Positions 927-40,479 of a DNA stretch of 41,775 nt are shown here, piece after piece. Below the pieces are notes generated by a model. It was not told the DNA's origin and searched no databases. It worked only from the letters and a program-made list of their open reading frames with translations. The translations under genes and the position numbers were made by a program. Each line of letters starts with the position of its first letter. The first letter of the stretch is position 1. The stretch comes from a virus: UHGV virus genome UHGV-0209075. One strand, given 5' to 3'.

Positions 927-1656
927 TGGTTGCCTCCTGGCAAAGTTGGGCGACAATATCGCGATATTTATTCAGCTCCCGCAGCGCGGCACATACTCGC
1001 TCCCATTTCCGGATATCACTTTTCGCCCGACGCAGTTCGCGGTTTGCCTGTCGCAGCGATGGCAGAACCAGATTATCCACTCGCTTCTCAAGCGGCTGCA
1101 CAATGCCCGCCACAGTTTCTGTTTTAATATCTTCCTGTGTTGCAGCTTCCTGTACTGGTAACGCAACACATGCAGGCTGAGGAAAGGCTTTACCATCAGT
1201 TTCCGCTACCGATGCCGCTTTCGGCTCTGCTGGTAAATTACCGCCCGGCATGCAGTAACGAAATTTACCGTTCTGATTAACACGAATCAGACGACCTTTG
1301 CTGATTGCCATTGCCAGCGTTGAAGCCACTTTGCGGGATGTTGTACCGAACAGCGTAGCCAGTTCATCCGCCGTTTGTGGTCCGCGTTGTTCAATCGTCG
1401 CGGTTAAATCGCACTCTGAGATTTTCGCTACTGTCGCCGTGGTGGTTTCTTCCGGCTGTTCTTCTGGCGCTGGCTGTTCCTGCTGAACGTTGTTATCAGC
1501 CACACGCCAGGTGTATACGCTTTTATCAACGAAGCCAGCCTTTTTCAGTTCCCACAGCTCGTTCAGTACTTCTTCACGACTGATATCAAGTCGCGCAGCC
1601 AGCTCTACCGACGTGGCTTTTCCCATCGCTTTCAGTGCGTCAAAAACAGTCTCCAT
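913..1656 (-). CDS. putative winged-helix DNA-binding protein (resembles DUF1627-type prophage proteins), nin region
   Basis: 247-aa ORF with GGGAGG SD; N-terminal ~60 aa look like a wHTH ([28 protein letters not shown]), Pro/Glu-rich linker, coiled-coil C-terminus. Confidence 0.5.
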
Positions 1657-1688
1657 AAATTTCCTCCCGGTAAAAATTACTTCTCAAC

Positions 1689-2354
1689 TCAAACAAAACC
1701 AGCCGCTTTCCGGCGTTCATACTCCTGTTTCAGCAACTCAATTGGCGTTGGTCCCGACGGGCGTTTGGGTGCCGCCAGTTGTCGCCGGACTGGCGGAATG
1801 CTCAGGCCATTACCAACATGCTTTGCCCATTTCGTCAGTTGCCATTCTGCAAGCCGTTTTAGCTCCCCTTCGGTCATCTGGCGCTCAATCCCCTTTGAAC
1901 GCATCTCGAGGCAAATGTGATACAGCACAGGCTGAGACCACGGGTACTTATCACTTCCGTCATATCGCCAGGACTCATTGCGCCAGCGGCGGTACTCCTC
2001 CATCACAGCATCCACCGTCAGACCGAATGGATTGGCTCCGCTTTCCGAAATCAGTGCGACAAACTCAGCCAGGTCCGGAGGCCATGTTTCACCCGCCCGG
2101 CAGCGGTCCATGCACTGGCGGCAGACCTGTCGGATTTGCTGCTCAGTCATCGCGCCAATCTGTGCAATCCAGAGCTTCGAAGGTGCGGCCCCGTTCTTCT
2201 GGGTCCAGCGGTTCGAATAAACCTCCCCCATGAGCTCCCACAGCTTCCACGCCGTTTCCGTCGCTGATAAATCCGTTTTCACGTTCCCACTGCTCACGTG
2301 CTGCCCGAATTTCCTGAACTGCCCGTGATGCGGTGCCACCTGGTGCGGCTGCAT
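1689..2354 (-). CDS. replication protein P-like (helicase loader)
   Basis: Immediately downstream of O-like gene; C-terminal half resembles lambda P by eye (YPW motif, basic C-terminus); start uncertain (ATG at 2354, 2231 or 2150) because the longest ORF overlaps the O-like ORF by 212 nt. Confidence 0.6.
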   Translation of the reverse strand: MQPHQVAPHHGQFRKFGQHVSSGNVKTDLSATETAWKLWELMGEVYSNRWTQKNGAAPSKLWIAQIGAMTEQQIRQVCRQCMDRCRAGETWPPDLAEFVALISESGANPFGLTVDAVMEEYRRWRNESWRYDGSDKYPWSQPVLYHICLEMRSKGIERQMTEGELKRLAEWQLTKWAKHVGNGLSIPPVRRQLAAPKRPSGPTPIELLKQEYERRKAAGFV

Positions 2355-3156
2355 GGCTCACCCCCTTGCTGACTGGTTTAACCTGTGCCCTGACGTGATT
2401 TACGTGACGGGCGAATTTCTGCTCCCACTGAACCTGCGTGAAAACTTTCCCCTCCGCTGCCCAGTAGTCCCGGAAAGTGGCAAGTTCAGCAGGCGTAAAT
2501 TCCGGCTCCGACAGAGCCACTCCCCACAGTGCAGCCCGCCGTCGAAAATCCGGCGACGGATGCCAGCCATCGGTCATCGGAAATTTCCCGATGGGTTCGC
2601 TCAGGCCTTCCAGGTAATCAGGTTCCGCTGCCTGCAACGGCACGCCATTCGACTCACTGATCGGAGCACTCTCGCGCACGCGCGCGTTATGTGTGGGGTT
2701 TAATTCTTTTAGATCTGTATCTTTATTAGTTGCTTTTGTGTTGGCATCATGTTCAAACACAACACCAACATCTGTTTGAACACCTGTTAAATCTCTCTCT
2801 TGTTTTGTTTGAACATCTGCTTCCTTTCTGCTTCTTCTGGCTTGAACAGATGCTTTTCCGGCGGCTGATTTTTTGGTTAATTTTTCCCTGACTGATGCCA
2901 GATCTTCCTCAATCCGAAGATGCACCCATTCATCGCCGTTATCGCAAAAAAACTCCCTCAAGGATGGTTCCACATCAGCCCATCGCTCGTTAGTCAGACG
3001 GGCAATTTTTGCCAGCCTGTTTTTGGGTATTGGCTTCCCTGTTTGCCAGTAATTGAACATCAGCAACAAATACGCACCGTGCTCCTCTGCTGACAAATGC
3101 ATGGTGTCAGCCAGGTAATCAGCTATGTACAGTTGCATGTATGGTAATGCGGCCAT
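2143..3156 (-). CDS. replication initiator O-like protein with DUF1376/YdaU-type N-terminal domain
   Basis: N-terminus MAALPYMQLYIADYLADTMHLSAEEHGAYLLLMFNYW typical of phage replication-initiation DUF1376 proteins; ATG 3156 preceded by GAGGTGA; synteny cro-cII-O-P. Confidence 0.6.
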   Translation of the reverse strand: MAALPYMQLYIADYLADTMHLSAEEHGAYLLLMFNYWQTGKPIPKNRLAKIARLTNERWADVEPSLREFFCDNGDEWVHLRIEEDLASVREKLTKKSAAGKASVQARRSRKEADVQTKQERDLTGVQTDVGVVFEHDANTKATNKDTDLKELNPTHNARVRESAPISESNGVPLQAAEPDYLEGLSEPIGKFPMTDGWHPSPDFRRRAALWGVALSEPEFTPAELATFRDYWAAEGKVFTQVQWEQKFARHVNHVRAQVKPVSKGVSHAAAPGGTASRAVQEIRAAREQWERENGFISDGNGVEAVGAHGGGLFEPLDPEERGRTFEALDCTDWRDD

Positions 3157-3235
3157 GTTCACCTCATCTGGTGCCGAACCTTCCTCTGGTTATAATCTGT
3201 GATCCCCCAATCAACAGAACCAGAGGAGGTTCGAC

Positions 3236-3631
3236 ATGGATTTTGCAACTATCACAAGTAGCGTTGTGTTGAGTGCATGTGTTGCTGGCGTGGTTTCGCT
3301 GGTTAATGGTGCCTGGCAACGCAAATCGGAACGAACCATTGAAGCGCAACGCCGGGCTGCTGAAGCCAGGGCTAAAATAAGAGAAATGGCTCTCACCCTC
3401 GCATTGAAAGAATGGGAACTTCACCAAACCATATCGAAGACAAAGGGATATGGTGTCAGCGGCCCGGAAGTTTACGTCTTTCGATACTTTCGTATGCTCA
3501 ACCTGATGGAAGAAGACAAATTCACGATTGAAAATCTCAGACTGATCCAGCACGACTCCATGTGCGCCGTCGCAGCGATTCAGGCAGAGATCGAGCGATA
3601 CCGGGAGAAAAACGGCCTCCCGATGCCATAA
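3236..3631 (+). CDS. membrane-anchored protein of unknown function (cargo gene antisense to the replication operon)
   Basis: ATG 3236 preceded by AGAGGAGG (6-nt spacer) and a TATAAT hexamer at 3191-3196; residues ~5-24 hydrophobic helix, then Arg/Glu-rich helix and ~70-aa C-terminal domain. Confidence 0.6.
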   Translation: MDFATITSSVVLSACVAGVVSLVNGAWQRKSERTIEAQRRAAEARAKIREMALTLALKEWELHQTISKTKGYGVSGPEVYVFRYFRMLNLMEEDKFTIENLRLIQHDSMCAVAAIQAEIERYREKNGLPMP

Positions 3632-6283: not shown

Positions 6284-6578
6284 ACTGACAGTTTACTGAA
6301 AGGATATTTCTCTGAAAAGTCAGAGCATAACGCGAAAGCACACGGAGAAGCTCGTCTCTCTGTACTTTGTCGTTAAATTTAATTCGACCGTGCGCTTCCG
6401 GTTGTGGCAATCCGCGAAATGGCGCGGCGGTAAGTATGGCGGGGTTATTCCTTCCCCTTGAGGACACCGGGTTGTCAGGCTGACCATACGCTTAAGTGAC
6501 AGCCACGCCACAATATCCATGTGTAGTCTTTGGTGGCATCAGTTCTACTCCGTGACTGCTCTGCCGCCCTTTTTAAAG

Positions 6579-35349: not shown

Positions 35350-35700
35350 TTAAGGTTGTGATTCCGGAGGAGTCTTCAGAGAACCAGTAATTCTTCCTGG
35401 TAGCTTTCCTTTGTAGGTTATCCACACATTCTGCGCCTCTAAAATTACGGGGCGCTTTTCCGGCGACTGCTCATCCCCTTCACATAACCCGGCAGCAACA
35501 TCCAGGAAGACCTGTCTGATGCTCCTTCTGGCTGCTGCCTCATAAAACCCCAGCGCGGCACCTTCAACACGGTCCAGCGAGATGTCCAGGTCAAAAATTT
35601 CACCGTCAAAGCGTTTTTTGTCCCGTAACGCTAAAGTTACCGTAACTTTATTCTCAAAATTGCGGATCCCTTTCACAATCAGTTCATAGTTTTGAGTCAT
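35350..35700 (-). CDS. hypothetical protein (116 aa) between holin and endolysin
   Basis: ATG 35700 preceded by GGGGAGAG, 4 nt after holin stop; soluble-looking. Confidence 0.5.
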   Translation of the reverse strand: MTQNYELIVKGIRNFENKVTVTLALRDKKRFDGEIFDLDISLDRVEGAALGFYEAAARRSIRQVFLDVAAGLCEGDEQSPEKRPVILEAQNVWITYKGKLPGRITGSLKTPPESQP

Positions 35701-35704
35701 TGAA

Positions 35705-35920
35705 TTACTCTCCCCGTGCAGCCTTACGACGGTCCTCTCTGATTTTGAAATACAGGTTAGTCAGATATGTCAGGAAGCCCAGAACCAGACTCCCCAGTAC
35801 ACCAATCGCAGCCCACTGTGACGGACTGACCTGATCAAGCCACTGTAAAAACCAGTAGCCAGCACTGCCTGCGGAGGTGCCGTAGGCAATGCCCGTTGAA
35901 ATTTTATCCATGGATTTCAT
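35705..35920 (-). CDS. S: pinholin/antiholin S21-type with dual start (MKSM)
   Basis: From ATG 35920 (GGAGGTGA SD): [29 protein letters not shown]; two TM segments; second Met at codon 4. Confidence 0.85.
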
Positions 35921-36055
35921 AGCCTCACCTCCGCAGCGAACGGATGGCGTAGTTATAAGGGGAGCGAAAAAGAAAGAATGCGCGATTGCGCAATATGGTA
36001 ACGTCAGGGTATTATCCACTGGCTGAATAGATCACTTCACGTTTTTTGTTCCTTG

Positions 36056-36085
36056 CCGCCCGTATCCATATGCGGGCTTTTTTTT
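36056..36085 (+). terminator. hairpin + T8 on plus strand upstream of holin
   Basis: GCCCGTAT...ATGCGGGC followed by TTTTTTTT. Confidence 0.4.
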
Positions 36086-36090
36086 GCATG

Positions 36091-36121
36091 TAAAAAGGCC
36101 CCAACACATGTGCGTGGGGCC
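36091..36121 (-). terminator. hairpin + U-tract on minus strand between cargo ORF and holin
   Basis: GGCCCC-13 nt-GGGGCC followed on minus strand by UUUUUAC. Confidence 0.45.
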
Positions 36122-36517
36122 TGAGAGTATACATGGTTTCAGTCAACTGCATGGTGCCGGGTGCCTCCCGGTGAATTCAGTACCAGCACCTGAATCCGCG
36201 ATTATCCCATATACCTACTCGCTGATTGCCCCTCCGCACAGGGGGATTCACCATGCCAGTTTCTTTTAACAAACTCCCCGCAAACCAGACAACAGTCAAC
36301 CGCCTGAATTGTGAAGTATTTAAAAATTTCTCCCGCTAACTGATACCCGGCTAACAGTCTGGCGTTTTCTTTTTCAGCAACGGGAAAGCAACAACCACCA
36401 CACCCGCCACCAGCACACCGTCAGCCAGCACTGACATTATCCGGCTGCTGCAATGCCACTCACAAAAACAGTAAGCAATCACTTTTTACCGTAACAAGTG
36501 ATAATCCAGATATGTAT

Positions 36518-36844
36518 CTACCCCAGATGAGTAATCCGAAGTTCATCCATACCACAGGTCCTGGCTATTCTGTTGTACTCCTGAACAAGAGCAAATAATT
36601 CTGAATTAGCAACCATGAACTCATCGCAAACCCTCTGAATAGCATCACTATTCAGAATAATAACGTCTCTTCCCGAAAGACGATCAGGAGTACAGAACAA
36701 AACTGTCAAACGGCTGAAGGCCTTTGCTCGTGCTGCATTGACTATATCAATACGCTGCCTAAGGATGAAACACCCCGACGCCTCATCAATATTCACTCTA
36801 CCCACACCATATGAATGATAAATATTTAATGCTGAAAAAACCAT
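36518..36844 (-). CDS. hypothetical protein (108 aa), AT-rich cargo ORF at the stx-equivalent position
   Basis: Only ORF >60 aa in the 36126-36984 gap; about 40% GC; no clear SD at either candidate start, so coding status uncertain. Confidence 0.35.
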   Translation of the reverse strand: MVFSALNIYHSYGVGRVNIDEASGCFILRQRIDIVNAARAKAFSRLTVLFCTPDRLSGRDVIILNSDAIQRVCDEFMVANSELFALVQEYNRIARTCGMDELRITHLG

Positions 36845-36984
36845 TGGACCGTATAACAAACACTCAATCAATACTTAACAGAACTTTTATTTTTGACAAA
36901 CATATAATATTTTCAACAATATCCTGAGCCAGGTATATTTCAGTATAAGGCTCTGCCGGAAGGAATCTGGAAGAATGAATATAG

Positions 36985-37058
36985 CGCGCTGTACTGGATT
37001 CGAACCAGTGACCGATTGCTTAGAAGGCAATTGCTCTGTCCGGCTGAGCTAACAACGC
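36985..37058 (-). tRNA. tRNA-Arg (anticodon UCU)
   Basis: Hand-folded cloverleaf: acceptor GCGTTGT/ACAGCGC, D-stem GCTC/GAGC, anticodon stem ATTGC/GCAAT with loop CTTCTAA, T-arm ACTGG-TTCGAAT-CCAGT. Confidence 0.8.
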
Positions 37059-37158
37059 TGAATACCGATAATGGACCGCCATCGGGGACCCGCCCCCGCA
37101 CCAACAACCCTGTTATCGCGTCGTCTGCTCTTCCTGATAAGCTAATGGCGGTTTGTGA

Positions 37159-37234
37159 TGGTGGCCCTTGCTGGATTTGAACCAGCGACCTGGCGATTAT
37201 GAGTCGCTCGCTCTCACCACTGAGCTAAAGGGCC
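37159..37234 (-). tRNA. tRNA with CAU anticodon (Ile2/lysidine-type or Met), CCA encoded
   Basis: Hand-folded cloverleaf: acceptor GGCCCTT/AAGGGCC, anticodon loop CTCATAA, T-arm GCTGG-TTCAAAT-CCAGC; resembles E. coli ileX by eye. Confidence 0.8.
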
Positions 37235-37270
37235 GGGAGCAGAATAATAACGGTCCGTAATTAATTCCGC

Positions 37271-37296
37271 AATAAAAAACCCGCTCGGCGGCGGGT
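37271..37296 (-). terminator. tR'-like terminator about 50 nt downstream of the candidate late promoter
   Basis: ACCCGC-tcggcg-GCGGGT followed on minus strand by UUUUUAUU. Confidence 0.5.
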
Positions 37297-37336
37297 TGTA
37301 GAAACTCTTCTAACGTCAGGCATAAAAGGCCCATCG

Positions 37337-37372
37337 TTATGACGAATTTACCACAGATTCCGGAAAAATCAA
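37337..37372 (-). promoter_or_regulatory. candidate late promoter PR' (Q-dependent) just downstream of Q
   Basis: Minus-strand TTGATT (37372-37367), 16-bp spacer, TAAATT (37350-37345). Confidence 0.4.
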
Positions 37373-37377
37373 CCTTG

Positions 37378-38199
37378 TTACCTAGTTACCTTTTTTAACT
37401 GCCGCTCAGCCCATGCTTCTTCAATATCAAACCGGGTCACCAGCGCATCATAGAATTTCTTAACTGTTTTTTCCCATGACGCGCGTGTTATCTGGTTTGT
37501 CACCTCGCATATAGCATTAAATGCCTCCGTTGATGGCAGCCTTTCACAGCCACGACCACCACAACGCTGGCAATCTCTGATAACAGGCATACCACGTTTT
37601 ACCGACTCTTCACGATGAATGGCGACACCACGCCCACGGCAATCCTTACAGGCGGTGGAAACCTCACCCTTTCCGCCACACTCCGGACAGGCAACTTTTA
37701 CCACCTCCCTGACTTTTTTCCATTCTTCCCAGTAAGACGGATACACGCCTTTTGTGCACTTTGCCCACACTGGTGGCTTACCATCCGGATACTGGATCTT
37801 GTTTGTAAAAACCTCGCTTTCAATAAATTTTTTTCCGTGACAGCAGGGGCACTGTTTTTTGCTCGCCGCGCTACGGGCATAATCTTCAAACGCATACGAA
37901 GCCATAATGCGCATCACTACCGGTTTTATTTCTGCCGGAAGTTTTCTCAACGCCGCCACACGATCGCACCGACTGAGTGCATAATCTGCCAGTAATTCTG
38001 TTGCCCGCGCCCTGTCATTCATACTGATGCCCATTTTCCCCAGGAACGCAGAAAACCCCATCTCAGCCCGATTCTGTGTCATGCCCTGCGCGGCCATCAC
38101 ATCAGTGATACTCAGCGCATCTTTTGACGTTGAGGCCGATACATCGGTCAGGCCAGGGGATTTTGGGGAGTAGTATTTCGGTAAATCTTCCAGTTTCAT
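37378..38199 (-). CDS. late antiterminator Q (zinc-binding, resembles Quu-type prophage antiterminators)
   Basis: N-terminal YSPKSPGLTDVSA...TDVMAAQGM and multiple CxxC pairs; start overlaps rusA stop; followed by PR'/tR' candidates. Confidence 0.75.
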   Translation of the reverse strand: MKLEDLPKYYSPKSPGLTDVSASTSKDALSITDVMAAQGMTQNRAEMGFSAFLGKMGISMNDRARATELLADYALSRCDRVAALRKLPAEIKPVVMRIMASYAFEDYARSAASKKQCPCCHGKKFIESEVFTNKIQYPDGKPPVWAKCTKGVYPSYWEEWKKVREVVKVACPECGGKGEVSTACKDCRGRGVAIHREESVKRGMPVIRDCQRCGGRGCERLPSTEAFNAICEVTNQITRASWEKTVKKFYDALVTRFDIEEAWAERQLKKVTR

Positions 38200-40070: not shown

Positions 40071-40226
40071 TTACTCCTCAGGTTCGTAGACTGTGAAGAC
40101 AGCGACCTCCGTCTGGCCGGTTCGAATTCGTACCTCGCAGAGGTCTTTCCTCGTTACCAGTGCCGTCACTATGACGGTTAAACAGATGACGATCAGGGCG
40201 ATTAACATCGCCTTTTGCTGCTTCAT
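40071..40226 (-). CDS. hok: Hok/Gef-family type I toxin
   Basis: MKQQKAMLIALIVICLTVIVTALVTRKDLCEVRIRTGQTEVAVFTVYEPEE is near-identical to E. coli HokD/RelF as I recall it; AAGGAG SD. Confidence 0.8.
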   Translation of the reverse strand: MKQQKAMLIALIVICLTVIVTALVTRKDLCEVRIRTGQTEVAVFTVYEPEE

Positions 40227-40283
40227 AGCCTGCTTCTCCTTGCCTTTCGGCACGTAAGAGGCTAACCTAGATTTGCCGTTCAT
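40071..40283 (-). CDS. mok: mok-like in-frame N-terminally extended reading frame over hok
   Basis: ATG 40283 opens a 70-codon frame ending at the hok stop, as I recall for chromosomal mok/hok loci. Confidence 0.5.
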   Translation of the reverse strand: MNGKSRLASYVPKGKEKQAMKQQKAMLIALIVICLTVIVTALVTRKDLCEVRIRTGQTEVAVFTVYEPEE

Positions 40284-40347
40284 AGATTGAGCCTCAGATT
40301 AATGTTAAGCGTCTTGCAGGACGCGTAATGTTAACTGGGGCTTTTCT

Positions 40348-40383
40348 CTATCTGCCTTTGGTGTTCATGCCTGAGGCAGATAG
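40348..40383. other. 10-bp perfect-stem hairpin in the hok/mok upstream region
   Basis: CTATCTGCCT-16 nt-AGGCAGATAG. Confidence 0.4.
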
Positions 40384-40479
40384 CCTCAAGCACCCGCAGC
40401 AATTCTACTTAAGTTAGATAAGCTTTTCTATGGTATTCTCTCAGCGTCCCGTAAATACAGTCTCGGCTCATCATTTTTA

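Follow-up and report, generated by a model that had tools for sequence, protein, structure and literature searches.

Two small protein genes, an STnc100 RNA and a predicted convergent RNA at a probable moron site of a lambdoid prophage

Convergent small RNA (sRNA) genes have been described in eight prophages of E. coli O157 Sakai (Sp3, Sp4, Sp5, Sp9, Sp10, Sp11, Sp15 and Sp17), where they lie 3' of PR', between a moron coding sequence (CDS) and the next phage open reading frame (ORF) (Tree et al. 2014, PMC4104026). One partner in such pairs is STnc100, published for Sakai as EcOnc05, EcOnc27 and EcOnc04; EcOnc05 measures ~222 nt and EcOnc27, the copy of Sp5, ~235/247 nt and is Hfq-dependent (Tree et al. 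2014). In strain EDL933, 11 STnc100 copies are transcribed, one of which was confirmed by Northern blot. The other partner is antisense to the late operon, examples being AsxR (RF02703), AgvB (RF02702), EcOnc03 and EcOnc08; AsxR, AgvB and EcOnc03 form a group of anti-sRNAs, characterised by the sequestration or destabilisation of a core-genome sRNA through a 5' variable region (FnrS in the case of AsxR and GcvB in that of AgvB). Here we describe a locus of this kind in UHGV virus genome UHGV-0209075, of which a stretch of 41,775 nt, referred to as the window, was analysed. It represents a lambdoid prophage whose late operon lies on the minus strand, in the order Q, tR', tRNAs, slot, P21-type holin, DUF1327, lysozyme and Rz. 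The slot (36020-36984) is very probably a moron site with three stacked modules: a protein moron, an STnc100 RNA of the EcOnc05 type and a convergent RNA of the EcOnc08 type (Table 1). The assignments to families, the gene models and the data on conservation and mosaicism were obtained here, and what is said on transcription, sizes and Hfq binding comes from the literature on homologs. An earlier note on this DNA had left the cargo of the slot unidentified, suggesting a small protein or an RNA; it proved to be right on both counts, and the cargo can now be named from its matches to STnc100, an EcOnc08 homolog, DUF3927 and phrog_2873.

The STnc100 gene was recognised by Rfam (RF02076) in a permissive scan of 35500-37500 and again upon scanning the whole window (match 36285..36086 on the minus strand, 139 bits vs a gathering threshold of 47, E 4.5e-32, model positions 1-206 of 206). 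The cmscan alignment and the minimum free energy fold contain the long-range closing helix (GCAUGGUG/CACCAUGC), the internal hairpins and the 3' intrinsic terminator, the last consisting of a hairpin (36121..36097) followed by five U residues (36096..36092). The minus-strand hairpin and U-tract observed in the earlier note is the terminator of STnc100. The probe with which EcOnc05 was detected on Northern blots (Tree et al. 2014) matches the window at 35 of 35 positions (36193-36227), and the STnc_100 quantitative PCR primers of PMC12370729 match the window copy exactly. The 5' domain is identical to that of the EcOnc05 copy in Sakai Sp4, and the 3' tail and terminator differ; in the window the single-stranded 3' tail and the terminator represent a distinct allele, present in 97 of 5426 complete E. 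coli genomes. Like the Sakai copies, this STnc100 gene follows Q, the tRNAs and a moron CDS, precedes the lysis genes and has a terminator that is built in the same way.

With loci that have different genes on the upstream side, homology extends to ~36314-36327, and the motif that is common to them, TTTTTAAAT(A/G), provides a -10-like TAAATA (36322..36317), from which a 5' end near 36310 and an RNA of ~220 nt may be derived. By analogy with its homologs the RNA would be a discrete, Hfq-associated species of ~220-250 nt. A 2026 preprint (doi 10.64898/2026.05.13.724894) has linked STnc100 to PasD1 and PasD2 of E2348/69, a strain of enteropathogenic E. coli (EPEC). These two are distant relatives, scoring 41 and 38 bits on the STnc100 model (below the gathering threshold), with the closing helix in common and a different seed (UGUGAG). 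Some prophages were found to have two or three copies of STnc100 in a single late region, arranged in tandem or close to each other (e.g. 2619-3296 in the locus of E. coli S88 (L010), 3569-3935 in L014, and 344-556 and 3650-3839 in L016).

On the plus strand, a -35 hexamer TTGCGC (35986-91) and a -10 hexamer TATTAT (36010-15), separated by an 18-bp spacer, precede a hairpin (36058-36077) and a run of eight T residues (36078-85). The earlier note had correctly placed this hairpin with T8 beside the one on the minus strand (36121..36092). The predicted product is a plus-strand RNA of 65 nt (~36021-36085), the length being set by analogy with AsxR. The promoter pattern occurs once in the window, vs 0 occurrences expected by chance. 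In diverged copies (~73% identity) the hexamers are invariant and always 18 bp apart, the spacer is variable, and a conserved body, a hairpin and a U-run follow. The stem of the terminator is kept by compensatory changes in four variants, as seen upon comparison of their folds (GCCCGUAU/AUGCGGGC, GCCCGCGU/GCGCGGGC, AACCGCUC/GAGCGGUU and CCCGCGC/GCGCGGG). The unit aligns with positions 3437-3541 of the Sakai Sp4 locus (L013) at ~74% identity, with ACUUCACGUUU and UUCCUUGCC invariant, and it is homologous to the minus-strand Hfq peak at 1179938-1180010 of Sp4 obtained by cross-linking and analysis of cDNA (CRAC), i.e. EcOnc08 (Tree et al. 2014, Table S2). For this comparison the offset between old and new Sp4 coordinates was taken as 0, because the two peaks then fall on the two RNAs. 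The EcOnc08 peak measures 73 nt (PMC4104026) and coincides with the Sp4 homolog of the predicted short RNA. The 3' ends of the plus RNA and STnc100 are ~6 bp apart, tail to tail, with a junction (..UUUUUACAUG-AAAAAA-hairpin) that Sp5 has as well.

The CRAC peak on the homolog and the AsxR-like position together mark the plus RNA as an EcOnc08-type member and, as far as its sequence tells, it is one that occupies the AsxR/AgvB position outside the AsxR/AgvB sequence family, since an Rfam match is absent and the body is different. With the convergent anti-sRNA genes AsxR, AgvB, EcOnc03 and EcOnc08 it shares the orientation antisense to the late operon, the tail-to-tail arrangement with STnc100, the promoter elements (a TTGCGC -35, an 18-bp spacer and a TAnnAT -10), the short length of the RNA and a GCCCG...CGGGC terminator with a U-run. 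Unlike AsxR, AgvB and EcOnc03, which have a body of the form GUAUCUCAUGC.AUUGCCCGAACCCA.UCGGGC with a conserved 3' region of ~42 nt, the window RNA has another body, and it abuts the holin gene and not the nanS-p esterase gene. An identity as AsxR, AgvB or Esr41 was rejected for want of a match to these Rfam families, and one as PasA, PasB or PasC for want of BLAST similarity to the E2348/69 loci. Pairing between the plus RNA and its partner STnc100, as calculated with RNAduplex, was no better than that of shuffled sequences (z 0.1-0.8).

The plus-strand hairpin with T8 could instead simply terminate transcription in both directions, or could form the end of a longer antisense transcript that starts nearer to or inside the holin gene and acts in cis on the late mRNA. 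We consider this improbable, while noting that the late-transcript leader, ~100 nt upstream of the holin start, is a perfect complement of the plus RNA, and that the only Northern blot for the EcOnc08 region of Sp4, with a probe (EcOnc08/21/42) overlying the putative promoter, gave a band of ~271 nt (Tree et al. 2014, PMC4104026); Sp4 thus makes a longer antisense transcript, the short form being putative. However, the window sequence upstream of 35980 is unrelated to Sp4, so that the window and Sp4 do not have a long-form promoter in common, and the 73-nt CRAC peak corresponds to the short RNA. The conservation pattern also argues for a promoter at the predicted place: TTGCGC and TATTAT are invariant at their fixed distance of 18 bp, whereas the spacer and the late-sense sequence that pairs with TTGCGC vary. 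The late-sense hairpin in question (35979-35992) is a stronger, 8-bp terminator in Sp4 and Sp5 (GGCTGCGCAACTGCGCGGCC, then TTTTT), and in another variant its partner sequence changes and TTGCGC stays the same. Finally, the same promoter geometry is found just upstream of AsxR in Sp5 (TTGCGC-18-TAAAAT), and the 5' end of AsxR was mapped by rapid amplification of cDNA ends (PMC4104026).

The reading of the slot as a moron site with a convergent sRNA pair is supported by the comparison with related loci proposed in the earlier note, in which the sRNA pair is constant and the protein cargo varies. Between the same neighbouring genes, some related phages have the cargo CDSs and others lack them, in line with the definition of a moron (Juhala et al. 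2000, as cited in PMC4104026). MS8345 has tRNA-Arg, STnc100 and the holin, with the sRNA pair alone and neither of the two CDSs; Sakai Sp4 has tRNA-Arg, STnc100 and then EcOnc08, and Sakai Sp5 has stx2AB at the site, with stx2B followed by STnc100 and then AsxR, tail to tail. JLK-2012 has tciA/tciB, and in strain 266917_2 the same block is followed by IraM and an esterase. The locus of that strain (L001) contains at 2588-2923 a gene for the IraM anti-adapter (an inhibitor of RssB), directly downstream of STnc100 and on the opposite strand, then a SASA esterase, which is another host-regulator cargo at the site. The block 36148-36984 was found in 1182 of the 5426 complete genomes, with 87% query coverage, and the holin-proximal block 35916-36150 in 97; among the matches listed, none has the two blocks joined (best coverage 87%). 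With the stx2AB locus of Shiga toxin (Stx) phages (Sakai Sp5, 933W type) the window has in common the order Q, ileZ/arg tRNAs, cargo CDS, STnc100, convergent sRNA and lysis genes. It differs in that the cargo consists of phrog_2873 and DUF3927 genes, that nanS-p is absent and that argN is degenerate. In agreement with the earlier note, which saw no AB5-toxin-like ORFs, neither an A- nor a B-subunit match was obtained for any ORF of the slot in Pfam or PHROG.

The earlier note had interpreted the two hairpins as back-to-back terminators that insulate a single 108-117-aa ORF, a role that is not borne out by these comparisons. The ORF is real, the hairpins are genuinely terminator-like and the STnc100 terminator probably also ends the moron transcript, as there is no terminator between DUF3927 and STnc100; nevertheless, the hairpins belong to the Rfam STnc100 family and to the unit at the EcOnc08/AsxR position, and they occur with the same RNA bodies in loci without the ORF (MS8345, Sakai Sp4 and Sp5). 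They mark where two convergent sRNAs end, a pair of the type described previously (Tree et al. 2014, PMC4104026), and a lone protein moron with dedicated terminators that have no role in an RNA gene is very unlikely.

The minus-strand ORF was described in the earlier note with the correct coordinates (36518-36844/36871) as the only one on that strand; the second gene, DUF3927, and the conserved start were missed. The ORF can be read from TTG 36871 or from the in-frame ATG 36844, but the alignment upstream of GTG 36796 requires non-triplet indels and shows a stop in one locus (L014), and distant homologs (33-44% identity) are 91-95 aa long and all start at the position of the GTG, so that the 92-aa model (36796..36518) is the best one. 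In several assemblies (L016-L018, at ~1000-3000) an IS3-family element is located directly upstream of this start and creates an unrelated N-terminal extension (P0017); the insertion point provides incidental support for a GTG/ATG start at the NIDE motif. The product matches phrog_2873 (E 3.8e-70, profile positions 1-108 of 108), and only 19 relatives were retrieved when 1.84 billion representatives were searched exhaustively with HMMER. A second lineage at 57-61% protein identity occupies a similar slot, with an AraC-type regulator, the ORF and STnc100 in that order, so the protein travels with STnc100 in two lineages. AlphaFold2 predicts two helices (3-34 and 50-81) that form a hairpin tipped by a small beta hairpin (pLDDT (predicted local distance difference test) 88). 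The structure search, which the earlier note had called for together with one for homology, gave no informative fold match: Foldseek found nothing at E<=1e-3 in PDB and BFVD and returned generic helical hairpins, the best being prefoldin beta (E 0.11).

Could this ORF have arisen by chance in AT-rich non-coding DNA? Its Shine-Dalgarno (SD) and start signals are weak, as the earlier note had remarked, it is left unannotated by the Prokaryotic Genome Annotation Pipeline (PGAP) in the RefSeq relative NZ_CP026723, and no match was found in Pfam, NCBIfam, PADLOC or among PDB sequences. Set against this are the length and stop codon, which the two lineages share at 68% nucleotide identity over 279 nt without an indel, the homologs of equal length at far lower identity, the strong phrog_2873 match and the confident fold prediction. 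In addition, the ratio of nonsynonymous to synonymous substitutions between the lineages (dN/dS, Nei-Gojobori) is 0.28 in frame vs 1.1-1.3 in the shifted frames, and third codon positions hold 43 of the 89 differences. We therefore give a chance origin little credence; judged by its sequence, the 108/117-aa ORF is a real gene, best modelled as 92 aa.

The second protein gene (36482..36351) encodes a DUF3927 protein (PF13064, E 1.7e-27, 95.6 bits vs a cut-off of 25) and is annotated by PGAP at the same coordinates in relatives. The gene order mirrors that in E2348/69, where DUF3927 is followed by the PasD sRNA; the E2348/69 protein has 52 aa vs 43 aa in the window, where the N-terminal hydrophobic segment is shorter. 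PHROG 1470, to which the protein belongs, is labelled TciB-like, inhibition of cell division. The name TciB stems from similarity-based annotation, as for phage P1, and not from an experiment, and our literature search on DUF3927 or TciB yielded no relevant work. That DUF3927 and STnc100 would be a type I toxin-antitoxin-like pair, the hydrophobic peptide being controlled by the adjacent RNA, seems most improbable in spite of that label and of the small hydrophobic peptide whose gene directly precedes the sRNA in the window, in JLK-2012 and in the two prophages of E2348/69, as STnc100 lies downstream on the same strand, is not antisense, and also occurs without DUF3927 after tRNA-Arg or stx2B.

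Several observations weigh against the slot as we read it, with three modules of which two are RNA genes. The expression of the RNAs in the window is deduced from homologs, the putative promoter of STnc100 has a poor -35, and the Rfam models of AsxR and AgvB gave no match at E<=1 in 35500-37500, in a search that recovered AsxR at 88 bits in Sakai Sp5. To these can be added the ~271-nt band of Sp4 and, for the 92-aa gene, the weak translation signals, the missing PGAP annotation and the Foldseek result.

In the mechanism that we infer, as we do the transcription start sites in the window, what the RNAs target and what the two proteins do, the protein moron comprises an AT-rich, promoter-like leader, the 92-aa phrog_2873 protein and the 43-aa DUF3927 membrane peptide. 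The lack of a terminator after DUF3927 implies that moron transcripts should enter STnc100 and stop there, its terminator probably ending the transcript of the two protein genes as well. STnc100 itself has a structured 5' domain closed by the GCAUGGUG...CACCAUGC helix and ends in the intrinsic terminator, with the allele-specific, single-stranded 3' tail presumably serving as the seed, as in the related PasD. The third module would be the ~65-nt plus RNA from the TTGCGC-18-TATTAT promoter, ending in the hairpin with U8. In the lysogen each RNA would probably be transcribed from a promoter of its own and, bound to Hfq, act in trans on mRNAs or sRNAs of the host or the prophage. Upon induction, polymerase modified by Q would pass the two terminators and continue into the holin gene.

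Every component of the slot is of a kind already catalogued, and the convergent sRNA pair at a moron site was described before by Tree et al. 2014. Their rule extends to prophages of non-Stx strains, with the protein cargo variable and the sRNA pair constant. About one fifth of the complete E. coli genomes carry the module, and the genome records leave the RNAs unannotated, some of them calling spurious antisense ORFs. The questions that follow are incremental within the known framework, i.e. the targets of this STnc100 allele and of the EcOnc08-type RNA and the role of the 92-aa protein. It is possible, and we put it forward tentatively, that the plus RNA (variant V1, in ~97 complete E. coli genomes) is an anti-sRNA or trans regulator with a target unlike those of AsxR and AgvB, and that at the same time the 92-aa protein, with or without DUF3927, is an uncharacterised lysogenic-conversion or superinfection-exclusion factor.

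The 28-codon plus-strand ORF with a good SD reported in the earlier note does exist (ATG 36253 to 36339, behind AGGGGGA), but it was rejected as a gene. Its SD and ATG are the reverse complement of an invariant STnc100 stem-loop (GCAUGGUGAAUCCCCCUGUGCGGAGGGGC), the ORF being antisense to the RNA's conserved 5' stem, and the frame is not conserved, ending after 10 codons in the copies of Stx phages. In many E. coli genomes, ORFs at 36084-36269 and 36226-36339, both on the plus strand and antisense to STnc100, appear in the PGAP annotation as pseudogene fragments named 'hypothetical protein'; they match phrog_27294 and, weakly, phrog_24488, and look like spurious calls that result from conservation at the RNA level.

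Table 1. Features of the slot and its surroundings, with positions in the window
Feature	Position	Strand	Remarks
Q antiterminator	38199..37378	-	Pfam Antiterm, E 5e-52
tR'-like terminator	37297..37278	-	
tRNA, CAT anticodon	37159..37234	-	Met according to ARAGORN; upstream edge of the slot, context only
tRNA-Arg(TCT), argO-like	36984..37058	-	Upstream boundary of the slot
AT-rich leader (~34% GC)	36872..36983	-	Sigma-70-like sites TTGAAA-16-AAAAAT at 36916..36889
92-aa protein gene, phrog_2873	36518..36796	-	GTG start
DUF3927 gene, 43 aa, small hydrophobic	36351..36482	-	Pfam
STnc100 sRNA gene	36086..36314	-	Rfam match 36285..36086
Convergent small RNA unit	35986..36085	+	Promoter hexamers, hairpin and T8
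Late-sense hairpin TGCGCAATCGCGCA, then U-rich run	35979..35992	-	Overlaps the -35 of the plus-strand unit
Holin, P21-type class II, MKSM dual start	35705..35920	-	Pfam Phage_holin_2_1, E 2.5e-35; downstream boundary of the slot

The position of the cargo between Q, the tRNAs and the holin had been recognised in the earlier note as that of a moron slot, a view with which the mosaic content in MS8345, Sp5, JLK-2012 and 266917_2 agrees. The low GC content that it assigned to the whole ~950 bp holds for 36500-36980 (0.34-0.44 vs ~0.5 in the flanks) and not for 36000-36400 (0.47-0.53). Promoter-like sites were no more numerous than in shuffled sequences (4 vs 2.7+/-1.7), and the nearest terminator downstream is that of STnc100; the leader upstream of the 92-aa gene may contain the promoter of the protein moron.

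The tRNA with the CAT anticodon is identical to ileZ (tRNA-Ile, anticodon cat) as annotated in Sakai prophages, and is therefore probably a lysidine-modified tRNA-Ile2. The 100-bp gap between the two tRNAs (37059-37158, minus strand) corresponds to a degenerate argN, the middle tRNA of the ileZ-argN-argO cluster of Stx phages; the ends of the acceptor, D-arm and T-arm align with argN of Sakai Sp4, the anticodon region is replaced, and neither ARAGORN nor Rfam calls a tRNA there. At the other side of the slot, the holin starts with MKSM, the dual-start motif of the pinholin/antiholin pair of phage 21, and a DUF1327/YdfR gene (35350-35700, minus strand) is situated between the holin gene and that of a lysozyme with an N-terminal hydrophobic segment resembling a signal-anchor-release (SAR) sequence. 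Further away, a DicF sRNA gene was found in the early region of the prophage (6518-6569, plus strand; Rfam, 58 bits vs a gathering threshold of 48), and a sok antitoxin RNA at 40221-40395 on the minus strand (Rfam, 112 bits) implies a type I toxin-antitoxin locus of the hok/sok type upstream of the nin region.

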